The notes beneath the pieces are model-generated. The model had not been told where the DNA came from. It did no database searches and saw nothing but the letters and a program-made list of their open reading frames with translations. The translations under genes and the position numbers were made by a program. A DNA stretch of 64,000 nucleotides, from the NCBI GenBank assembly GCA_035501775.1, contig DATJVM010000006.1, forward strand, positions 111,948 through 175,947, read 5' to 3'. This document shows positions 3,229 through 18,319 of the stretch, one piece after another (position 1 is the first letter of the stretch; every line of letters begins with the position of its first letter). The stretch is from Gemmatimonadales bacterium (lineage in GTDB: Bacteria; Gemmatimonadota; Gemmatimonadetes; Gemmatimonadales; GWC2-71-9).

Positions 3229-3861
3229 CTACTCGGATTCCTGCAGGCGGAACAGGCCGGCCGCGAGCACGCTGCCGAGGAACGGGCCGACCAGGTAGAG
3301 CCAGAGATGATCGAGGGTGCCGCCGGCCAGCAGGGCGCGCACCAGGATCGGGCCGGTCCCCACCGCGGGGTTGAACGCGCCGCCCGAGATGCCGCCGCCA
3401 GCCGCGGCCCCCACGAAGATCGTGAAGCCGATGGCCAGCCCGTAGAATGAGTTGCCCTGGGTCTTGGGGTGGCAGGCGGTGTTGAGCACCACAATGCAGA
3501 GCGCGAACGTAAAGAGCGCCTCCACCAGGAGCGCGGCAAGCGTGCTGGAGGTGGGGGCGGGCGACGGGGCGAAGGTTTGCCCCGCCGTCAGGTAGACAGC
3601 GAGGCTGGCCACGATGGCTCCCAGAACCTGCGCCACCATGTAGGGTGCGATCTCGCGCGCGGCTAACTTGCCCCGAAGAGCCGCTGCGAGTGAGACCGCG
3701 GGATTGTAGTGCCCGCCGGAGACGTGGCCGCCCATGTAGACCATGATCATCAGCGAGGCGCCGATGGCGAGTGGCGCGATGGGCGACTGGGTTACCACGG
3801 TGAGGCCCACGGTCAGGACGAGGAAGAACGTCCCCACGAATTCGGTGAGATATCTGGTCAT
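3229..3861 (-). CDS. MIP-family aquaporin
   Basis: Two NPA boxes (GGHYNPAVS, GGAFNPAVG) and six hydrophobic helices. ATG at 3861 (MTRYLTEFVGTFFLV). Confidence 0.93.
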   Translation of the reverse strand: MTRYLTEFVGTFFLVLTVGLTVVTQSPIAPLAIGASLMIMVYMGGHVSGGHYNPAVSLAAALRGKLAAREIAPYMVAQVLGAIVASLAVYLTAGQTFAPSPAPTSSTLAALLVEALFTFALCIVVLNTACHPKTQGNSFYGLAIGFTIFVGAAAGGGISGGAFNPAVGTGPILVRALLAGGTLDHLWLYLVGPFLGSVLAAGLFRLQESE

Positions 3862-8446: not shown

Positions 8447-8633
8447 GTCCGGCTCTTCCGCCGCGCGAGCCGTGAGCGCACGCGGCGCGCGACTCGCCAG
8501 GCTGATCCGAGTGCCGGCCCGGCCGATGGATGGCTGCTACACTCGGCCTCCCGGCGCCTCGCCGGCGGATCAGCCGCGGCGCCGCTCATCGGCGCAGTCC
8601 GGCGAATCCTGACGGCGAGCGCAGTAGTTGGAA

Positions 8634-9068
8634 TCAGCGGTTTTCGTAGACGTAACTGTTCAGGTGAGCGATCGTCGCCGCCTGGTCCGCGACCTGGAAC
8701 GCCGTCAGGTCGCCGATCGTCACCACTCCGGCCAGCCCGTCCGGTCCCAGCACCGGGAGGTGCCGAATCCGGCGGGCCGTCATCATCGCGGCGCACTCGT
8801 CCATGGTGGTCTCGGGCTTGGCAGTCACCAGGCCGGTGGACATCACATCTCCCACCACCGTGGTCGCCGGCGGCCGCTCTTCGGCCACGACGCGACGCAT
8901 CACGTCACGCTCCGTGAAGATGCCTCGCAACTCGCTTCCCTCCACCACCAGGACTGCGCCGATTCCCTTCGTGTTCATGAGCTGTGCGGCGGCCAGCACC
9001 GTGCTGTCCGGAGTCACGGTCACGACGCTGGTTCCCTTCCGAGCGAGGATGTCACGGACGGTCGGCAT
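8634..9068 (-). CDS. CBS-pair domain protein
   Basis: Tandem CBS motifs VVTVTPDSTVLAAAQLMNTKGIGAVLVVE and VTAKPETTMDECAAMMTARRIRHLPVL. ATG at 9068. Confidence 0.92.
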   Translation of the reverse strand: MPTVRDILARKGTSVVTVTPDSTVLAAAQLMNTKGIGAVLVVEGSELRGIFTERDVMRRVVAEERPPATTVVGDVMSTGLVTAKPETTMDECAAMMTARRIRHLPVLGPDGLAGVVTIGDLTAFQVADQAATIAHLNSYVYENR

Positions 9069-9137
9069 AATGCCTCCGAGGGAATTGGACGGTACCGCGA
9101 TTGTACGCTCGGGAGACAATTCGCGCTAGGCAGCGCG

Positions 9138-9662
9138 TCAGACTGCGCCTCGCATGACCCAATCCTGCTGGGGGTCGGTTCCGACCGTGAAGGTCGCAGT
9201 TCCGACCTGCTCGAACCCGCACTTCCTGTAGAACGCGATGGCTCGTGGGTTCTCCTGCCAGACAGTAAGCCAGAGGTAGCTCGCCCCGCGGGCGCGGGCC
9301 GCGACCCGCACCGCCTCCATGAGAGGCCCCGCGATCCCGCGCCCGATCCACTCCGGCTCCAGGTAGAACCGCTGCAGCATGAGGCCGCGAGGCCCGAGCG
9401 GCAGGGGCGGGTCCTGCGAGCGGAGCTGGGCATAGCCGGCGGGAACCTCGCTCACCAGCGCGAGCAGGGTGACCGCTCCCGGCTCGACCACCTCCCTGGC
9501 CATGATCTCGGGGGAATAGTGCGTTCGGACGTGCAGCTCGAGATCTTCGGGGCGGTTGGCGGGGCCAAAAGCCGCTCGGAAAGTCCGCTCGGCGAGCGCG
9601 CTGAGCAGGGGGGCGTCGGTGCTGGTGGCGACGCGGATCTGGAGCCCCGGAGGCGGGGTCAC
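9138..9662 (-). CDS. GNAT N-acetyltransferase
   Basis: QRFYLEPEWIGRGIAGPLMEAV...AIAFYRKCGFEQVG. The GTG start overlaps the upstream stop (GTGA). Confidence 0.9.
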   Translation of the reverse strand: MTPPPGLQIRVATSTDAPLLSALAERTFRAAFGPANRPEDLELHVRTHYSPEIMAREVVEPGAVTLLALVSEVPAGYAQLRSQDPPLPLGPRGLMLQRFYLEPEWIGRGIAGPLMEAVRVAARARGASYLWLTVWQENPRAIAFYRKCGFEQVGTATFTVGTDPQQDWVMRGAV

Positions 9663-10072
9663 GCCTCACCCCGCGATTCGACCACGACCGCGCCCCATCC
9701 GTCGTAGGCGCCACCACGCGATTCGGCGACCGCCGCGAGGTGGCGCCGCAAACGATGCAGCTCATCGAGTGTGGGGGTCATCAGCCTGGTCGCCAGGCAC
9801 AGCCAGTCGCTGGAGCCTTCCTCGGCCACACGCATGTCGACTTGGAACCCCTCCGGCGCGAGCTGCTCGGCCACCGCCGCCGCGGCTGGCTGATCCGGTA
9901 GGTAGAGGTAGAACTCGACTTCGTGTGGCTGCTCGAGGTGCGACCCGGCTCGGGCCAGGGCGTCGAGCGTCGCGGCATCGGGATCCTCGCTCTCGGTTCG
10001 GGCGCGGTGCCGTCCCCACAGCATGAGGACGAGCCCCACCAGGCCGATGGCGAGCAGCGTCGCGATGGACAT
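9659..10072 (-). CDS. membrane-anchored RraB-like domain protein
   Basis: One TM helix (IATLLAIGLVGLVLMLW), then an RraB-type pattern HEVEFYLYLPDQ...EGFQV...GGAYDGWGAVV. ATG at 10072. Confidence 0.7.
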   Translation of the reverse strand: MSIATLLAIGLVGLVLMLWGRHRARTESEDPDAATLDALARAGSHLEQPHEVEFYLYLPDQPAAAAVAEQLAPEGFQVDMRVAEEGSSDWLCLATRLMTPTLDELHRLRRHLAAVAESRGGAYDGWGAVVVESRGEA

Positions 10073-10076
10073 CGCT

Positions 10077-10460
10077 TCACACCGGCCGGCGGGATCGGCG
10101 CGCGGGCCTGCGTCGCGCCGGCCGACGCGGCCGCCATTGGTGGCGGGCCAACGAAACTCGTCCGCCCGCATCGGGCACCACGCCCTCCTTGAGAAGGCGG
10201 AACCGCTGCTCGAGTCCGCCGGACTCCGGAGGGAGGCTGATTCGCCCCGCGCTGTTGATCACCCGATGCCAGGGGACGGAAGATCCGGAGGGGAGGGCGT
10301 GCAGGGCATACCCGACCTGGCGCGCCGCGCGGGCCAGCCCCGCTAGTGCAGCGATCTGGCCGTAGGTCGCGACGCGCCCGCGAGGGATGCGCCGCACTAA
10401 CGCGTAAATCCGCTGGTACGCCGGAGAGACGCCGCGCGGTACTCCTCCCGGGCCGCGCAT
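10077..10460 (-). CDS. MGMT-family alkyltransferase-like (ATL) protein
   Basis: RIPRGRVATYGQIAALAG...VPWHRVINSAGRIS. The PCHRV active-site Cys is replaced by Trp. ATG at 10460. Arg-rich C-terminal tail. Confidence 0.85.
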   Translation of the reverse strand: MRGPGGVPRGVSPAYQRIYALVRRIPRGRVATYGQIAALAGLARAARQVGYALHALPSGSSVPWHRVINSAGRISLPPESGGLEQRFRLLKEGVVPDAGGRVSLARHQWRPRRPARRRPARRSRRPV

Positions 10461-10465
10461 CGGCG

Positions 10466-11050
10466 TTACCCGCCCGCCCGCTCGGCGATGCGGCGGAGAT
10501 GATGGCTGGTATGGTACACGGTGAACGACGCCATTTCTTGCACCGTGAGGGAACCGAGCACGGGGTGTGGAAGGCGATAGCGGTCGAGTGCCGCCTCGGA
10601 CCACCGGGTCAGGGCGTGCTGCACCGCCACCGTCGCGGCCGCCCAGCCAGCCATGATTTCCTGTCGGCGCAGGGCCGGGACGACGGGTGTGGCCTCGGGC
10701 CTCGGCGTGAACAGGCCAGCCTGCAGGCCGCCGGCGAGCGTAGCGCGGTAGGTCTCCCGGATCGCTTCGTACGAACGGGACACGCCTGAACCGCGCCCGA
10801 AGCACAGGGCGAGAGGCCAGCGTGGCAGGCCGAGCGCCAATGTGAAGGGCTGCGTGGTCTTGCGGAGGTGTCGAACATGAATCGCCGGCGACCACGCCGT
10901 CCCCTGCGGGGCGAAGAACCGCGTATCGTCGAAGCGCGCGAGATAGCCGGTGCCGGCCCCGAGCAGCGCGCCGAGCGCTCGACTATGGTCGGGCCCGCTC
11001 AGCGGAACGCCTGGGTCGAAATCAGGAATGGGAGGTGCCGCGCCAGCCAT
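10466..11050 (-). CDS. DinB-family protein
   Basis: DinB_2-like helical bundle with candidate His ligands (IHVRHL ... FTVYHTSHHLRRI). Confidence 0.85.
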   Translation of the reverse strand: MAGAAPPIPDFDPGVPLSGPDHSRALGALLGAGTGYLARFDDTRFFAPQGTAWSPAIHVRHLRKTTQPFTLALGLPRWPLALCFGRGSGVSRSYEAIRETYRATLAGGLQAGLFTPRPEATPVVPALRRQEIMAGWAAATVAVQHALTRWSEAALDRYRLPHPVLGSLTVQEMASFTVYHTSHHLRRIAERAGG

Positions 11051-11062
11051 TGCGGCCGTGGC

Positions 11063-11389
11063 TTACCGCCCCGCCTTCTGGGACGGTGGCATGATGGCCG
11101 GCACGGGGCCGATGAAGCGCGCCAACAGGTCGTGGAGTGCTCGATCGTGGGTGGCGATGTGCTCGTAGGCGACGATGCGGACTGATTCGCGGACGTCACG
11201 GAAGACGCCGAGTATGCGCCGTTCCCGGGTCTGCACCTCGATGCGGAGCAGCCGGCCCTCGATGTCGTAGGCCACCGGATAGGCTCCGGCCCGGACATCC
11301 TCCACCGCAAGCTCCCGCTCCGCCGCGCTCTGACTGGCGAAGACCAGCAGGCCGCCACGGGTGTCAATGACGATCGGTGGCTTGAGCAT
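11063..11389 (-). CDS. hypothetical protein
   Basis: ATG at 11389 (MLKPPIVIDTRGGLLVFASQ). 108 aa. The upstream 120 aa of the ORF is Arg/Gly junk. No family recognised. Confidence 0.6.
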   Translation of the reverse strand: MLKPPIVIDTRGGLLVFASQSAAERELAVEDVRAGAYPVAYDIEGRLLRIEVQTRERRILGVFRDVRESVRIVAYEHIATHDRALHDLLARFIGPVPAIMPPSQKAGR

Positions 11390-11391
11390 CG

Positions 11392-11862
11392 CTATGAGCT
11401 CCTCGGGCCGGTGGCGCGCGCCGTGCCGTCCGGCCCGGTCAACGCTGCGACCGCAGCCTGCGCGATCACCCCGTCTTCGGCGGAGGTCATCCCGCTCACG
11501 CCGACCGCTCCAACGACCTGGCCGTCGACCACCACCGGCAACCCGCCCTCGAGCGGAACCGCGCCCGGAAGCGCGAGCAGCGCAACGCGCCCGCCGGCGA
11601 TGCCGTCTTCCAGAGCCTTGGAGGGCCGCTTGAGCCGCGCCGCCGTGCGAGCCTTGAGGATGGCGATGTCCTGACTTGCGGCCTGAGTGCCGTCGAGGGC
11701 CTGGAAATAAATGAGGCCGCCGGCCGGGTCCACCACGGCGATGGCTACACTCCACCCACGCCTCAGCGCCTCCGCCTCGGCTGCGGCCGCCAGGTGCTTG
11801 GCCCCCTCGAGATTGAGGACGAGTTGCGAGCGAGTAAGAGTCATGGCGCTCACGCGGGTCAC
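11392..11862 (-). CDS. GlcG/HbpS-family heme-binding protein (DUF336)
   Basis: AIAVVDPAGGLIYFQALDG...LEGGLPVVVDGQVVGAVGVSG. Start is GTG 11862 (GTGA overlap) or ATG 11844. Confidence 0.9.
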   Translation of the reverse strand: MTRVSAMTLTRSQLVLNLEGAKHLAAAAEAEALRRGWSVAIAVVDPAGGLIYFQALDGTQAASQDIAILKARTAARLKRPSKALEDGIAGGRVALLALPGAVPLEGGLPVVVDGQVVGAVGVSGMTSAEDGVIAQAAVAALTGPDGTARATGPRSS

Positions 11863-12188
11863 TCGGTCGCGATCAGGATGCGACCGGCAGGGTCGATCTC
11901 GTGCAGCAACCCGATGATGGCATCTATGGATGGCTCGGTGGCTCGGTAGCGCCGCCCGTCGTTGTAGACGACAGTGACTTCCCGGGCATGGGTCTGAATC
12001 ACCGCGCGCACCGAATCGGGATGGGCACGAAGCTCCGCGACGAGTGCCGACCAGCTGCGGCTCTCCAGCGAAGAGGGCGCCGGAATCGTCTCGACGGGAG
12101 CCGGAGCGGGCGCGGTCGACGCGGGTGGCTTGCCGGCGGCCTGAGTCGCCGGTGGCGCGCTACCCTGGCAGCCCGACAGGACGAGCAT
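11859..12188 (-). CDS. lipoprotein, hypothetical
   Basis: Lipobox MLVLSGC, a Pro/Ala-rich linker, then a small globular C-terminal domain. Confidence 0.7.
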   Translation of the reverse strand: MLVLSGCQGSAPPATQAAGKPPASTAPAPAPVETIPAPSSLESRSWSALVAELRAHPDSVRAVIQTHAREVTVVYNDGRRYRATEPSIDAIIGLLHEIDPAGRILIATE

Positions 12189-12216
12189 CAGGGCAGGCCC
12201 GGCCAGGTGGGCGGGG

Positions 12217-12471
12217 CTACTGATCGGCGGCAGCGATGAGTTCCCGCGCTTTAGCGACGTAGGCGTCGTACGCTTTGCCCCAGAGGCCGGAGAAGCGGGA
12301 CTTCTTGGGGATGTTCTGGATCATTTCGAGCAGCGGACGGAGTCTGGGATCACTCCAATCGTCCGCCTCGAGATCTTCGAGGACGGTGCTGCGGGGAATC
12401 AGCCCTTCGAAGAATGCACGGGCGCGGACCGCGATTTCGTGCCGGCGATGCGCCCGAGGATCGGTTGCCAC
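12217..12471 (-). CDS. hypothetical protein
   Basis: 84 aa with a GTG start and coding-like composition. No family recognised. Confidence 0.5.
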   Translation of the reverse strand: MATDPRAHRRHEIAVRARAFFEGLIPRSTVLEDLEADDWSDPRLRPLLEMIQNIPKKSRFSGLWGKAYDAYVAKARELIAAADQ

Positions 12472-12548
12472 GCTGTCCTCCGGGTCAGGCCATGCATTCT
12501 ACCGCCGTGCGGGTCACGACGCCAACCCCCGCCGCTAGCGCACCCGGG

Positions 12549-13346
12549 TCACCCCACCCCCGGGGTCCTGCCGAGGCGTCCAGCCAGCGGCCAGCGAACC
12601 ATCCGGACAACGTCCCGGCCACCCCAGGCGGGCTCCAGCTCCGACTCGAACTGCTCGACCGGGTCAATACCGTGCACCGACCTGTATTTGGCGACGGCGG
12701 ACCAGGTTCCGAGAAACCCGACGAAGTCCGCGAGCGTCCAGGCGTGCTCCATGACTGCCGTGGGGAAGGAGAGTTCCGGCAGCGGGAACGACAGCGTCCG
12801 GTAGTCGGCGTCCACGTGGGCGCGGTCCGCTGGCCAGTACGGACCGACCGTCACGCGGTAGAAGCGCGCCAGGCGGGTGTCCACCTCGGGAGTGACCCGG
12901 CACAGGCCATAGCACCAGATGGCCAGGACGCCGCCCGGGCGGAGCACCCGCAGCGCCTCTTGGTAGAAGGCCGGCAGGTCGAACCAGTGTGCGGCCTGCG
13001 CGGCGGTCACGATGTCCACCGAGTGATCCGGAAGCCCGCTTGCGGTCTCCCGCGTCACCCGATAGGTGACCCGCGAGTGCGTCTCACCGTGCGCGATCTG
13101 GTCGGCCGAGGCATCGGTGGCCACGACCGCAGTGAAGTGCTCCGCGAGCCCGGTGGCGGCCTGGCCGTTCCCCGTCCCGCAATCCCACGCCGTGCCACGG
13201 CCAGGAGCGAGTTGGGCCAGGGCGGAGAAGAGCAGGCGGGGATAATGCGGACGCGATCGGGCGTAATCGACCGCTCGCCGGGAGAAGTGATCCTTGAAAG
13301 GCGCCGGGCTCCCCGAGGAGCCGGTTCCGCGAAATGGACCGGACAC
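12549..13346 (-). CDS. class I SAM-dependent methyltransferase (Methyltransf_11-like)
   Basis: Motif I AWDCGTGNGQAA, then VVATDAS, SVDIVTAAQAAHWF and LRPGGVLAIW. GTG 13346 immediately follows the TGA of the upstream gene. Confidence 0.9.
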   Translation of the reverse strand: MSGPFRGTGSSGSPAPFKDHFSRRAVDYARSRPHYPRLLFSALAQLAPGRGTAWDCGTGNGQAATGLAEHFTAVVATDASADQIAHGETHSRVTYRVTRETASGLPDHSVDIVTAAQAAHWFDLPAFYQEALRVLRPGGVLAIWCYGLCRVTPEVDTRLARFYRVTVGPYWPADRAHVDADYRTLSFPLPELSFPTAVMEHAWTLADFVGFLGTWSAVAKYRSVHGIDPVEQFESELEPAWGGRDVVRMVRWPLAGRLGRTPGVG

Positions 13347-14483
13347 TCAATACTCCGTCAGGAGATCCTGGACGCCCGTCAGCGCTACCAGCCGCCGATC
13401 CGGGCCTCCCCATGCAAAGAGGCAGATCGCTCCATCCCGCGATACCTGAAAGCCCAGACAGTCAGGGTATCGCCGGACGAAGCGACCGGCGCCACCCTCG
13501 TCGCTCCACGGCAGAGAGGTGATGGGACGTCCGTGGCCCAGGAGCCCGCTCACCGCGTCCGCGTGCGACAGCGTGAAGTCCTCGGCCGGCAGCGTGACGC
13601 TGGCGCCGAAACCGACCAACGAGAGATCATCACCGAGGACGACGGCACCGTCGATGGCGGCGAGCTGCGCGATCTGGGCCAGGAGGCGCTGGCTCAGATC
13701 GACCAGCAGCGACCGGGGGCGACTGGGCCGGGTGGCTGAGGACGCCCGACCGGCGCTCTCGCCGTCCTCCCCGGCCGGGTCGTCGAGGTCTCCCAGGCGG
13801 CCGCGCGCGAAGCCGGTGGATCGCTCATCCATCGTGTAGCGGAATCTCAGGGCCTCGGCCCACCCGTTCTGCCCGGTCGGCGCGACCAGCACCGTCCCAC
13901 CCTGGCCATTCCGCTCGACCGAGGCGAGGATCCTGAAGAGCTGCTCCACTCGGGCCAGGCGGTCCGGCGAGGGGGCGGCGTCGGTGCGGTCGATTATCGG
14001 GGCCACCAGGTTCGCGAGGGAATACGGCCCGCTCTTGACCAGTTGGATCTCGCCGCCCCGGATGACGCCGAGGACCTCCCGGTCCAGCGAAACAGCAAGG
14101 TGCGCCGGCCCAATGACGTGAATGACCGGCTGCCAGGGAGGCGCCGCTTCAAGCACGCCCCAGATCTGCGGCATGTCCTCGGCGGAGAGATCCACGGCGG
14201 CCAGGCCTGAGCCCAGTCCGGGGCTCAAGTGTACCACGGACTCCTGCGATACGATCACCGGTTCGGTGAAGCGCAGGCCTCCGGGGACCGTGCGGTCCAC
14301 GATCGTGAACTCGCCGCGGGCCGGCCGGCCCCCCTCGGGCCGCATGCTGGCCCAGAAGCAGGTGTTGAGCAGGTAGGCGACGTGTCGGCCGTCCAGCTGC
14401 AGCCGGTCCGCGGAAGAGGCGCCGCGTTCCGTGCCGGCGAAGATCCGGGTGCGTTCCCGGGCCTTCTCCACCAGCAGCTTCAC
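13347..14483 (-). CDS. DisA_N/DAC (diadenylate cyclase)-like protein with unrecognised N-terminal region
   Basis: The C-terminal half hand-aligns to the DAC fold: GGTVLVAP, AAIDGAVVLGDDLSLVGFGA (DGA motif) and GGAGRFVRRY...FQVSRDGAICLF (RHR position reads RF). An acidic/Ser-Pro insert splits the domain. GTG start. Confidence 0.7.
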   Translation of the reverse strand: MKLLVEKARERTRIFAGTERGASSADRLQLDGRHVAYLLNTCFWASMRPEGGRPARGEFTIVDRTVPGGLRFTEPVIVSQESVVHLSPGLGSGLAAVDLSAEDMPQIWGVLEAAPPWQPVIHVIGPAHLAVSLDREVLGVIRGGEIQLVKSGPYSLANLVAPIIDRTDAAPSPDRLARVEQLFRILASVERNGQGGTVLVAPTGQNGWAEALRFRYTMDERSTGFARGRLGDLDDPAGEDGESAGRASSATRPSRPRSLLVDLSQRLLAQIAQLAAIDGAVVLGDDLSLVGFGASVTLPAEDFTLSHADAVSGLLGHGRPITSLPWSDEGGAGRFVRRYPDCLGFQVSRDGAICLFAWGGPDRRLVALTGVQDLLTEY

Positions 14484-14635
14484 CAGCGGCGAGTCCGCCT
14501 GGAGCAGGGGAAGAATGAGTCCGTCCGTTCGTTAGGCGATGTACGAGCCACGCGGGCAGCGGCCCAGTCGGAGGCCCACTTGGCCACCGCGCCTCTAAGG
14601 TGCATGCCGCGCTGCGAGCCGCCAAGGCCCCCGGT

Positions 14636-15115
14636 TCACACCTGCCCGGCGCCGCCCCGCTCGGCTCGGCTGGGGTGCAGAAAGGTCTCGAGCACATCCT
14701 CCTCTGGCGGCACCAGGAGAAAGGCCTGCTGGAGCTCCGGAGGGATGGCTGTCGGGCGCCCGCTCGACGCGTGCACGAACACCCACAGCGTCTCGGCGCG
14801 AGCAATCACCACGCCGTCACGTTCGCGCCAGAAGAGATACCGGCGGGGCGACCTGAAGCGCTTGAACCCGGTGACCCAGGTAAGGAGTGTCAGCACGTCG
14901 CCTTTGAAGGCCGGCGCCAGGTACTCGATGCTGTGGGAGCGTACCACCCAGACCGCGCCGGCCTCGAGATAGCGCTCCACCGGCCAGCCCTGAGCCGCCG
15001 AGTGGGCGATGGCAGCCTCCTGCATCCATTGGAGGTATGCGAGGTTGTTCACGTGCCCGTTGACGTCGATGACCTCCGGGGGGATCTCGATGGTGCGGGT
15101 GAAGACTCGCGGCAT
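14636..15115 (-). CDS. acyl-CoA thioesterase (4HBT/YbgC-like hotdog fold)
   Basis: VIDVNGHVNNLAYLQWMQEAA and AVWVVRSHSIEYLAPAF. Confidence 0.9.
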   Translation of the reverse strand: MPRVFTRTIEIPPEVIDVNGHVNNLAYLQWMQEAAIAHSAAQGWPVERYLEAGAVWVVRSHSIEYLAPAFKGDVLTLLTWVTGFKRFRSPRRYLFWRERDGVVIARAETLWVFVHASSGRPTAIPPELQQAFLLVPPEEDVLETFLHPSRAERGGAGQV

Positions 15116-15121
15116 TTCCGG

Positions 15122-15505
15122 CTAGCCCTTCACGTAGGACAGCTTCTCCGCGACCAGGCCGTCGCGCACTCGGAAGACGTCTACTCCACGCACATGGCCC
15201 GGCGCGCCGTCGCGCATCCAGTGATACACCCAGCGGACCACGGCCCGGTCGCCGCACGCGAAGATCTCCTCCGTCTCGAACCGGGCCTTGGGGGAACGAG
15301 CGAAGAAGCTCTCCCAGAAGGCCCGCACCGCCGGCTGGCCCTGCAGGCGCTCCCCGTCCGGAGGGGGCCGTGTGCTGTCGAAGACGCAATCGGCTGTCAT
15401 GGCGGACATGATGGCCGCGACATCATGACGATTGAAGGCTTCGTTGAACCGCTCCACGGCCCGAAGGGTCCCCGCGGAGCGGTCATCGGTTGCGGCGCCA
15501 CTCAT
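15122..15505 (-). CDS. SnoaL-like / NTF2-family protein
   Basis: RAVERFNEAFNRHDVAAIMSAMTADCVF...VDVFRVRDGLVAEKLSYVKG. 127 aa. Confidence 0.88.
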   Translation of the reverse strand: MSGAATDDRSAGTLRAVERFNEAFNRHDVAAIMSAMTADCVFDSTRPPPDGERLQGQPAVRAFWESFFARSPKARFETEEIFACGDRAVVRWVYHWMRDGAPGHVRGVDVFRVRDGLVAEKLSYVKG

Positions 15506-15541
15506 GAGACCTCCTGTGTCGGAAGGCGGGACGGTGCAAGG

Positions 15542-16378
15542 TCAGAGCGCGCCCAGGTTGTAGACGAGCCCGGTATACAGAGCGTCGGGCTGCGGGCCGC
15601 GGAGCGGGAGAATGCCGCCGAGGTCCGCGGTCCACCGCGGCCGCAGGCTCAGAGTGGGCCCCGCCAGCAGGGCCACGATGCCCGCGCTTCCAGCGGGCCC
15701 GCCGGTCCGGGGATAGCCGTACACCTCGACCGCCAGCCCGACGGCGCCGGCCAACGGAACTCCGGCGGACGAAGTCCACAAGGTGGCGCTCCGTGGCGCC
15801 CGGGCGCCGTCACCGGAGCGACGGGTGTAGCCGAAGTTGATATCCAGGCTCATGTGGCCCAGCTGGTGGCTCGAAATGAGCAATAGCGTTCCATCGGTTG
15901 TCCCCGTGCCGTGGGCCGGGTTGGCAGTCGGGAGCTTCACGCTGGGCAGCACCGCCAGCGCCCCGACGATCGGCAGGTCATTCGCCAGCCGGACCTTGAG
16001 TCCGACCGTCAGGTCGGAGACGCCAAGGCCGGAGGCGGGGGGTCGAGTCAGGCTCGCGGCCAGACCGAGCTGAAGGCGCCGGGCCAGACCGATCTTGAGG
16101 AGCGTCGGTGTTTCCAGCGCGGTGGTCCCGCTCGGATTGTGGTCCCACTCGATACCAACCTCGACTTCGGCGTACCCAGGGGCCACTGTCCAGGCATGAG
16201 TCGCGACCGTCGGACGCTCCGGCATGACGGCATGAGGATCGGCGCCTTCCTGGGCGGCCACGCGTCGGCTCACGGAGCCAAGCAGGGCGAGGACCAGAGC
16301 GGCCCAGCGGGCCGGGCATGGCGCCACGAGCCGCTGTCTGAAGACGAGGAAGGTCCTGCCCCTCTGGCCCGAGGCCAT
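15542..16378 (-). CDS. outer-membrane beta-barrel transporter (MetA-pathway/phenol-degradation-like)
   Basis: Signal peptide ending RRVAAQ and an alternating beta-strand pattern. Conserved start ERPTVATHAWTVAPGYAEVEVG. Confidence 0.78.
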   Translation of the reverse strand: MASGQRGRTFLVFRQRLVAPCPARWAALVLALLGSVSRRVAAQEGADPHAVMPERPTVATHAWTVAPGYAEVEVGIEWDHNPSGTTALETPTLLKIGLARRLQLGLAASLTRPPASGLGVSDLTVGLKVRLANDLPIVGALAVLPSVKLPTANPAHGTGTTDGTLLLISSHQLGHMSLDINFGYTRRSGDGARAPRSATLWTSSAGVPLAGAVGLAVEVYGYPRTGGPAGSAGIVALLAGPTLSLRPRWTADLGGILPLRGPQPDALYTGLVYNLGAL

Positions 16379-16381
16379 CGG

Positions 16382-16915
16382 CTATTGCGGACTCGCGGTG
16401 GGCAGTTGCGCCAGATGATGCCGGGCGTGGAGGGTCAGGAGCCGGAGCGAGCGGGCAAGGGAGAGCTTGCCAAAATACGGATGCGTGAGCCGGCATCGCG
16501 CCGGAGCGGGGTGGGCCGCAATGGTGCTTTCCAGGATGGCCGTGATGCGGGACAGGTCCGCGAGCGCGTCCGGTTGCGACTGTGGGGTAGGCGAGGGTCT
16601 GGTTTCCCGCGGCGCCCGGATGCCGCCGGGGAAGACTCCGGTCTTGAGAACCCGCGAGAGGTAGAGCCGCCGGGCGACGAACTGCTTCCAGGGGTTCAAC
16701 CGCACGGCCATGTGCGCCCGTCCGGCGGCATCGTCATTCACCGCCTCGATGCTGAGGCGCACGTGTTCGGTGATGAGTGCAGGCGACCAGCGGTGCGGGC
16801 CGATCGGGCGCAGCCAGGTCGCGGAGTCGAGCGACGATGCGGCGCGAACGAAGTCGGCGACGGCCGCGCGATGCTCGGCGAGACCGGCAGCCCAGGGTGA
16901 CTCGCGTGGCGACAC
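16382..16915 (-). CDS. DinB-family protein
   Basis: GTG 16915 is preceded by GGGAGG and is preferred over the ORF-track TTG at 17032. C-terminal HPYFGKLSLARSLRLLTLHARHHLAQL. Confidence 0.8.
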   Translation of the reverse strand: MSPRESPWAAGLAEHRAAVADFVRAASSLDSATWLRPIGPHRWSPALITEHVRLSIEAVNDDAAGRAHMAVRLNPWKQFVARRLYLSRVLKTGVFPGGIRAPRETRPSPTPQSQPDALADLSRITAILESTIAAHPAPARCRLTHPYFGKLSLARSLRLLTLHARHHLAQLPTASPQ

Positions 16916-16976
16916 GGCGCCTCCCGGCGCGGGGACCGGCGGAATCGGCGGCCCCCGTTCCCGAGACTCGGTCGGA

Positions 16977-17336
16977 TTAGAACATCGGAGAGACCGGGGG
17001 GAGCCGGTAGGCGTATTTCTGCTTGCCGGCAAGCCCGGCCAGAGCGCCCTGCTTGGTCAGGCGATCCTGTGCGAAGAACAGCACCGCGCGGACCTTGTTT
17101 CCGTGAGCGATGATCTCTTCTTCCGTACAGCCGGTGGCCTCCATGGCCTCGGCCATGAGCTTCTGGTACCGCCGCGCGTTCCGCACCGCGAGATCAGGAG
17201 CCGACACCATGTAGCACATCCGGTCAAAGGCACTGTCCCACGAGACGTCGAGCGGTCCACAGGAGGGGTTGGCGCCACTAGGTGAGGGGAGGGCGGCAGC
17301 GCGCCGGCGCTTCTCGTCCTGACTCAACTTTGTCAT
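16977..17336 (-). CDS. hypothetical protein
   Basis: 119 aa with an ATG start (MTKLSQDEKRRR). No family recognised. Confidence 0.6.
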   Translation of the reverse strand: MTKLSQDEKRRRAAALPSPSGANPSCGPLDVSWDSAFDRMCYMVSAPDLAVRNARRYQKLMAEAMEATGCTEEEIIAHGNKVRAVLFFAQDRLTKQGALAGLAGKQKYAYRLPPVSPMF

Positions 17337-17492
17337 TCCTGCACTCCTGTTCGTCCGTGGTAGCGATCCAGCTCCGAAACACCCGGCGGGTGGTCCCGAG
17401 AGAAGAATGAAAGATAGCCTCTCTCCGGCCCCCTCGGGGACCCCCGCCGCGGCCAGGTTTTGACTGGTTTTCGGTCACTCTTTGGGGGTAGC

Positions 17493-18146
<654 letters not shown>

Positions 18147-18160
18147 TGCCTCGGAGGTTC

Positions 18161-18319
18161 TCAGAAATAGTCGGCGATCCAGCGCCGCGTGAAGTATCCG
18201 CCGAGCGCCGTTCCGAAGACCATCAGGAAGAATGCGGTCATCACGCCGACTCGCGCCCCGATCCACCACCCGATTCCACCGCCGATGCTGGCCCCGACGT
18301 ATGCGGCGAGTCCCTTCAT
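18161..18319 (-). CDS. small glycine-zipper membrane protein
   Basis: 52 aa (MKGLAAYVGASIGGGIGWWIGARVG...). The ATG is preceded by AGGAGG. Confidence 0.6.
   Translation of the reverse strand: MKGLAAYVGASIGGGIGWWIGARVGVMTAFFLMVFGTALGGYFTRRWIADYF

Follow-up and report, generated by a model that had tools for sequence, protein, structure and literature searches.

A DACNV-linked diadenylate-cyclase fold with a degenerate catalytic centre in Gemmatimonadales: a probable pseudo-cyclase

The window analysed here is a 64,000-nucleotide stretch from a Gemmatimonadales bacterium (contig DATJVM010000006.1, positions 111,948 to 175,947). Its minus strand carries a gene for a 378-residue protein, hereafter the window protein, composed of an N-terminal domain of the DACNV family, a linker, and a C-terminal domain with the fold of diadenylate cyclases (DACs). 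The open reading frame (ORF) is real, and its extent and GTG start are confirmed as first called (Table 1). The product is 100% identical to the NCBI entry "hypothetical protein VMG41_01930" from a Gemmatimonadales metagenome-assembled genome. Twelve orthologues share 50-65% identity with it, and the clade that they form is confined to Gemmatimonadales metagenome bins. Within this clade, the linker shows 51% identity, and a QDLLxEY motif is conserved at the C-terminus. The gene is directly followed by that of an S-adenosylmethionine (SAM) methyltransferase.

Table 1. Positions in the window of the gene, its domains and motifs, and the adjoining methyltransferase gene
Feature	Coordinates	Strand	Basis
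DACNV-DAC-like protein, 378 aa	13347..14483	-	ORF call, GTG start, coordinates including stop
DACNV "probable sensor" domain, aa 35-111	14151..14381	-	Pfam PF21751
Helical linker joining the DACNV and DAC-like domains, aa 156-192	13908..14018	-	AlphaFold2 helices H156-164 and H173-192
DAC-fold C-terminal domain, aa 193-378	13350..13907	-	Foldseek and hhalign; under PF02457 detection
Low-complexity acidic/Ser-Pro segment, predicted disordered, aa 226-254	13722..13808	-	pLDDT <50
DGA motif, kept, D278-G279-A280	13644..13652	-	Family alignments
Degenerate G-G-T-R-H-(Q/R)-S phosphate-binding loop, P325-W-S-D328-E329-G-G331	13491..13511	-	Family alignments
Equivalent of SQDG / CdaA SEET (Ser and acidic metal ligand), S348-R-D350-G	13431..13442	-	Alignments, P0013 versus CdaA
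Eleven in-frame codons before the annotated GTG, ILPLLQADSPL, first codon ATT	14484..14516	-	Orthologue comparison
TGAGTG stop/start junction with the methyltransferase	13344..13349	-	Sequence
SAM methyltransferase, class I, Methyltransf_11, 265 aa	12549..13346	-	Pfam, E 2.9e-16

The N-terminal domain matches the Pfam family PF21751 ("Probable sensor domain DACNV") with 30.8 bits (E 3.3e-7), which exceeds the family's gathering threshold of 27, while an NCBIfam scan of the window protein gave no match. In the AlphaFold2 (AF2) model, the corresponding α/β domain reaches approximately residue 150, with a predicted local distance difference test score (pLDDT) of 82-94. The initial annotation had failed to recognise this half of the protein but had guessed that it might be one of the sensor domains proposed to accompany DACs; the guess was right. 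Over residues 38-360, the window protein is collinear with P0013 (BLASTP, E 5e-16), a protein that carries both PF21751 and the DAC family PF02457, the latter at 33.7 bits and above its gathering threshold. An exhaustive hmmsearch with a profile of the 12-member clade retrieves 1,560 cluster representatives (50% identity), 487 of them at E<=1e-10, and most are 370-410 residues long and matched over their full length. In a 94-sequence alignment, made of 8 clade members and 86 of these representatives, DACNV is matched in 94/94 sequences and PF02457 in 65/94 at E<=0.01. A hidden Markov model (HMM) made only of family members outside the clade matches the window ORF at E 2.5e-75 over its full length and at E 1.1e-35 over the C-terminal half alone. 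The window protein belongs to the DACNV-DAC architecture, which has already been described computationally, and its relatives carry the NCBI label "putative sensor domain DACNV-containing protein". What had been taken for an orphan, undescribed module is a member of a large catalogued family. The names of the DACN* domains reportedly go back to an article by Galperin in J Bacteriol in 2023.

This DACNV-DAC family is very large, mostly of the RHQ type, and lies largely under the Pfam DAC threshold. Its PF21751 and PF02457 architecture, collinear with the window protein, is found in canonical proteins of ~450 residues from Geomonas, Citrifermentans, and Geobacter (P0098, P0108, P0112) and in others of ~390 residues (P0122-P0270). 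The window protein shares with them the FWAS..EEGR signature of DACNV, the W108-G109 pair, and the long stretch separating strand 1 from the DGA motif, as well as conserved GAVV, GFG[AG], and AARF motifs and the final strand. Across the many phyla of the wider family, GG[T/M]RHQS is commoner than the textbook RHR (P0122-P0270; loci L004-L083). Members of ~390 residues score, for example, 17-24 bits, under the gathering threshold of the Pfam DAC family, and many of them are for this reason annotated as DACNV-only or hypothetical proteins. The second Glu of the DACNV signature is found in 86/86 family representatives and 7/8 clade members. The window protein has a Gly there (PEGGR, aa 50-53, ~14325-14336, minus strand), which makes it the most divergent member of its clade in the sensor domain too.

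For the C-terminal half, a PF02457 search, one of the checks suggested with the initial annotation, gave no match to the window protein at E<=1 over its full length or at E<=10 with the C-half alone. The fold comparison suggested alongside it was positive: the top 50 Foldseek matches of the AF2 model in the PDB are all diadenylate cyclases of the CdaA/DisA type (DisA, CdaA, DacA, DacM, CdaM), with a probability of 1.0 and template modelling (TM) scores of 0.55-0.65 normalised to targets of ~150 residues. The model itself (pLDDT 80.5, predicted TM score 0.78) was built on a multiple sequence alignment (MSA) dominated by motif-bearing relatives and including true DACs; a clade-only MSA of 12 sequences was too shallow for folding (pLDDT 39.6). 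When the C-halves are aligned separately, hhalign relates those of the clade to the ~390-residue RHQ family with a probability of 100% (E 3e-52) and to the PF02457-positive ~450-residue proteins with a probability of 96.5% (E 7.7e-10). Searches of PDB sequences reached no solved DAC, either with the clade profile (E<=10) or with the wider-family profiles (E<=0.01); canonical P0013 alone reaches CdaA by sequence, weakly (E 0.019-0.9). It is therefore through fold comparison and Pfam, and not by direct sequence similarity, that a tie to solved DACs is made, and the homology of the C-half to DACs is secure through intermediates, namely P0013, the family HMMs, the hhalign comparisons, and the model. 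The C-terminal half is a DAC-fold domain, as the initial annotation had proposed from a hand alignment. The segments it had singled out (GGTVLVAP, IDGAVV..GFGA, and the C-terminal strand) fall in the same alignment columns as HGGxLVxxP, DGAVV..GFGG, and SQDG of proteins having both DACNV and DisA_N.

The window protein shares with the characterised enzymes CdaA/DacA, DisA, CdaS, and CdaM/DacM (PDB IDs: 4rv7, 6hvl, 8ogk, 6gyw, 3c1y, 9y4s, 7dfx, 8ofj) a predicted DAC α/β fold (TM ~0.6) and a DGA motif, and it has residues that match their Ser-x-acidic element. In contrast, it is only 12-17% identical to them, has no RHR motif, and lacks their transmembrane, HhH, or YojJ-type domains and GlmM/CdaR partners. 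From strand 1 to the loop equivalent to RHR, it is also longer by ~70-80 residues. P0013 likewise displays ~80 extra residues relative to CdaA between aligned anchor points, and the distance from strand 1 to DGA is 75 residues in the window protein, 75-85 in its clade, 47-94 in the ~390-residue family, and 80-87 in the canonical ~450-residue proteins. These matching lengths indicate that the extra region is common to the family and not peculiar to the window protein. The acidic/Ser-Pro insert of ~30 residues, previously thought to split the domain, is thus part of a segment that varies family-wide.

The catalytic motifs of the family are well defined. Canonical DACNV-DAC proteins conserve HGG, DGA (Asp in 62/62), GFGG, GTRHRAAYR, and SQDG, and the ~390-residue family conserves HGG, DGA, GG[T/M]RH[Q/R]SAARFV, and SQDG, with RHQ more frequent than RHR. 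Their mapping onto characterised enzymes is anchored by P0013, whose GTRHRAAYRL...VVVSQDG aligns to GTRHRAAVGI...IVVSEET of the solved CdaA. In the window protein, HGG becomes Q194-G-G, DGA is kept as D278-G-A, SQDG reads S348-R-D350-G, and G-G-T-R-H-Q/R-S is replaced by P325-W-S-D328-E329-G-G331. The R-H-(Q/R) motif, the Arg and His of which are 100% conserved in the 86 family representatives, is gone as a whole and its charge is reversed (D328-E329-G330), and the Gly-Gly-Thr that precedes Arg-His is Pro-Trp-Ser. The GxRHRxA motif, including its first Arg, is not present in the window protein, the aligned residues being S327-D328-E329-G330-G331. A single exchange of His to Phe in RHR had been reported earlier; this alignment was off by six residues, and the R-F-V that it used belongs to the conserved AARFV following the motif. 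S348 and D350, which correspond to the Ser-x-acidic element (SEET in CdaA), are present in the window protein and variable across the clade.

Other catalytic positions vary as well. The Asp of DGA, found in 86/86 RHQ-family representatives, is D in six, E in five, and G in one of the 12 clade members, and the clade displays D/E/G at position 278, S/T/G/V at 348, and A/D/E/Q/G/T at 350. The full D-R-H-S-D core is absent from every clade member. A conservative version, E-R-H-[S/T]-[D/E], survives in three of them, and the D-D-E-S-D core of the window protein is the most radical of all at the Arg-His positions. Unlike its DACNV-DAC relatives, the clade does not conserve HGG, the Asp of DGA, GG-T-R-H-(Q/R)-S, or SQDG, and the window protein has D-E-G for R-H-Q/R and an undetectable PF02457. 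Conversely, 66 positions that are invariant in the clade are less than 40% conserved in the wider family. A column test was made on the 25 columns that are at least 85% conserved in the 86 family representatives. Structural columns (F43, W44, S46, W108, G109, G196, G279, A280, F292, G293, A332, F335, and others) are 75-100% retained in the clade, whereas polar active-site columns (G195, D278, G326, R328, H329, S331, S348, D350) are 0-50% retained, a difference with a Mann-Whitney p of 2e-5 between classes assigned post hoc.

In a neighbour-joining tree rooted on the ~450-residue proteins, the Gemmatimonadales clade is monophyletic and nested inside the family, and its sister, P0122, has intact motifs. 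The motif loss is a derived state. The clade has a stem branch of 0.138, longer than the 95th percentile of internal branches (0.093). DACNV is the best-conserved region in the clade, with a mean pairwise identity of 75% versus 49-61% for the DAC-like half. Judging from these alignments, the fold core, the DACNV domain, and the 66 clade-specific positions are under strong purifying selection. DACNV conservation together with the clade-invariant positions is what a pseudoenzyme with a retained function would be expected to show, and not what a decaying gene would.

The consequences of losing these residues have been documented in active enzymes. Replacing RHR by AAA in M. tuberculosis DacA abolishes both ATP binding and the synthesis of cyclic di-AMP (c-di-AMP) (PMC3328451), and the activity of L. 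interrogans CdaA is abolished by D172A or R203A (PMC12974146). Ligand binding needs DGA and RHR, and catalysis needs two DAC domains arranged head-to-head (PMC8573169). PanS, which has DGF/GGR in place of DGA/RHR and produces cUA, is active, keeps the Asp and the Arg, and loses its activity on mutation of these two motifs (Ragucci et al. 2026 preprint). With Asp-Glu substituted for Arg-His in the triphosphate-binding loop, canonical ATP binding would be unlikely in the window protein.

The window protein is probably a non-catalytic pseudo-cyclase and not a c-di-AMP synthase; both the loss of activity and the non-catalytic role are inferred. The initial annotation had left the choice between a divergent synthase and an inactivated sensor, and the motif loss favours the latter over the former. 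The protein is soluble and made of two domains, with the N-terminal DACNV, the proposed sensor, connected through a helical linker to the C-terminal diadenylate-cyclase fold. Intact proteins of the wider family are presumed to be signal-regulated cyclic-dinucleotide synthases. The small Gemmatimonadales clade arose inside this family, and the polar active-site residues were no longer conserved thereafter. The resulting inactive pseudo-cyclase was probably kept for a non-catalytic role centred on DACNV, such as ligand sensing or protein-protein regulation.

Several points weigh against this interpretation. The class of active-site columns was set after the alignment had been viewed, and the confident AF2 model leaned on a motif-bearing MSA, the clade-only control having given no usable model. 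The window protein retains D278 of DGA as well as S348 and D350, and the nearby R334, R337, and R338 could conceivably act as substitutes in phosphate binding. The three clade members with the conservative E-R-H-[S/T]-[D/E] set might be active, in which case inactivity may not cover the whole clade. The "active" state of the wider DACNV-DAC family is itself presumed. Finally, as PanS illustrates, a DAC may stay active with a considerably remodelled active site (Ragucci et al. 2026 preprint).

It has to be considered whether the degenerate domain has been given a new use within c-di-AMP signalling, a pathway of which the synthases, phosphodiesterases, and receptors are well known. It might act as a receptor that recognises c-di-AMP or a different adenine nucleotide, or as a dominant-negative or scaffolding head-to-head partner of an active DAC, in which case a signal sensed by DACNV would be placed upstream of c-di-AMP signalling without the messenger being made. 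This proposal is rather unlikely; if it held, the protein would be for DACs what degenerate receptor domains are for GGDEF/EAL proteins. In c-di-GMP signalling, inactive domains of the GGDEF/EAL type are major receptors. A literature search for degenerate or pseudoenzyme DACs, or for degenerate DAC receptors, found none. The window protein resembles the degenerate GGDEF/EAL/HD-GYP receptors and scaffolds of c-di-GMP (PMC12448109) in that a cyclase fold would have outlived its catalytic residues with a sensor domain still attached; the fold and the messenger are different, and the likeness is one of analogy.

It is likewise unlikely that the window protein is still active, as a nucleotide cyclase or synthase whose active site has been remodelled and whose substrate or product may have changed. 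DGA, S348, and D350 would then provide the metal and 3'-OH chemistry, while R334, R337, and R338 would replace Arg-His. The presence of D278-G279-A280, S348, and D350, the invariant GAVV and GFGA strands, the apparent purifying selection on the protein, and the activity of PanS despite its DGF/GGR motifs all fit this proposal. However, the essential Arg is changed to Asp and the His to Glu, a charge reversal in the very loop that binds the triphosphate. Furthermore, D278, S348, and D350 vary among close orthologues, which is unexpected if they are catalytic in the clade, and motif-bearing relatives conserve R334 to the same degree, so that it cannot count as a compensatory gain. The defence-associated DACs DS-2C (DACNG+DACNH+DAC) and PanS/Panoptoo, the latter being minimal DACs (Ragucci et al. 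2026 preprint), are comparable in having a divergent DAC site and an N-terminal "DACN*" module, a putative sensor. The window protein differs from them by carrying DACNV instead of DACNG/DACNH, by the absence of a nearby effector gene (S2TM-beta/Cap15-like), by the lack of a PADLOC match, and by its housekeeping-type synteny and flat GC content, whereas PanS retains the essential Asp and Arg.

The abutting stop and start codons had suggested a functional unit of two genes, coupled in translation, for the DAC-like protein and the SAM methyltransferase. The TGAGTG junction is indeed present, with the TGA stop of one ORF directly adjoining the GTG of the other, and the methyltransferase has no alternative start. 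The three other Gemmatimonadales loci (L001-L003, proteins 53-54% identical) each have an orthologous methyltransferase downstream as well. Nevertheless, functional coupling is improbable. The junction is not conserved, being a 10-nucleotide gap in L001 and being interrupted by a 122-aa ORF in L002 and an 81-aa ORF in L003, and adjacency carries little information because the whole block of more than 15 genes is syntenic. Beyond Gemmatimonadales, 80 distant DACNV-DAC loci were collected from Burkholderiales, Nitrosospira, cyanobacteria, Acidobacteriota, Desulfovibrionales, Desulfobulbales, Myxococcota, and others. They were found from 22 closer sequences with the pattern GG[TM]RHQSAA, which cannot recover degenerate clade members. 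Homologues of the methyltransferase, the thioesterase, or the 84-aa ORF (see below) occur within 5 kb in 0/80 of them, and other neighbours recur in at most 11/80. Among all 83 loci, methyltransferase homologues are restricted to L001-L003, that is, to one synteny block. The DACNV-DAC family is effectively stand-alone, without a conserved partner, and the methyltransferase is most likely a neighbour through inherited gene order and not a functional partner.

That the gene is an incipient pseudogene whose function is not retained is very improbable: the lost catalytic motifs, the low-complexity, disordered central segment, and the uncertain start codon would fit decay, but the ORF is intact in at least 12 divergent orthologues, DACNV is 75% identical clade-wide, 66 positions are clade-invariant, and the C-terminal QDLLxEY is conserved.

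As a probable pseudo-cyclase, the window protein would offer a clean natural case of a DAC fold without ATP-binding residues, selected together with a sensor domain, and intact close relatives (P0122, P0125) exist for side-by-side comparison with it. The gene should not be labelled a diadenylate cyclase. The impact is limited, the clade being small and uncultured and offering no functional handle.

The surroundings of the gene are of the housekeeping type. Upstream on the same strand are a 4HBT-type thioesterase and a SnoaL-like protein, and the order in the syntenic block is carbonic anhydrase, GNATs, DinB_2, thioesterase, DACNV protein, methyltransferase, 84-aa ORF, HbpS-like, MGMT-like, RraB, and CBS. 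The block comprises more than 15 small unrelated genes, mostly on the same strand (window ~8600-18300, minus strand), syntenic at ~55-65% protein identity; three GNATs, two DinB_2 proteins, an MGMT-like DNA_binding_1 protein, and a CBS pair are among its products. As already noted from the sequence, CdaR, GlmM, and phosphodiesterase genes are absent, and neither these nor a second DAC are found in the window or in the orthologous loci. An Rfam search of the window at the gathering threshold gave no match, and hence no c-di-AMP riboswitch in the window. The CBS-pair protein inside the block is a stand-alone protein of 161 residues (8634-9119, minus strand). The known receptors of c-di-AMP include a class of CBS-pair proteins (e.g., CbpB/DarB), and CBS pairs are very common.

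An origin in a defence island or by horizontal transfer was considered and rejected, in view of the flat GC content (0.68-0.72) and the syntenic housekeeping-type neighbours. The test for defence association was negative, the neighbours being thioesterase, SnoaL, methyltransferase, GNAT, and DinB proteins with no partnered effector. PADLOC gave no match to the DACNV-DAC-like protein; its "mad2" match to the methyltransferase (E 1.5e-12) is confined to the generic SAM-binding region and was regarded as non-specific.

The start of the DACNV-DAC-like gene deserves a comment. The residues encoded by the eleven codons preceding the annotated GTG (Table 1) are conserved in orthologues. An in-frame TAA lies at 14532-14534, 17 codons upstream of that GTG, with no ATG, GTG, or TTG between them, and the ATT at 14514-14516 is the best start candidate. 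In L001, the "V" of VKLL is encoded by GTC, and a canonical start is again not present upstream, which suggests either that initiation is non-canonical (ATT or CTG) or that starts have been mis-called clade-wide.

Two of the related loci harbor additional, lineage-specific genes. In L002, a second, different methyltransferase is found upstream of the DACNV gene (884-1693), and the 122-aa ORF downstream of it occupies 3276-3644. The 81-aa ORF between the DACNV gene and the methyltransferase of L003 (6699-6944) displays a weak helix-turn-helix-like similarity (E 0.018-0.08).

A promoter and terminator scan of the region returned one promoter-like site and 0 terminators. This sole sigma-70-like site (12525-12496, minus strand) is found shortly before the 84-aa ORF (12217-12471, minus strand), which itself is located just downstream of the methyltransferase. 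The 84-aa ORF has no Pfam or NCBIfam match. Its identity to the orthologues in L001-L003 is 88-89%, whereas the proteins flanking it reach only 54-65%, and it appears to encode an unusually constrained small protein.

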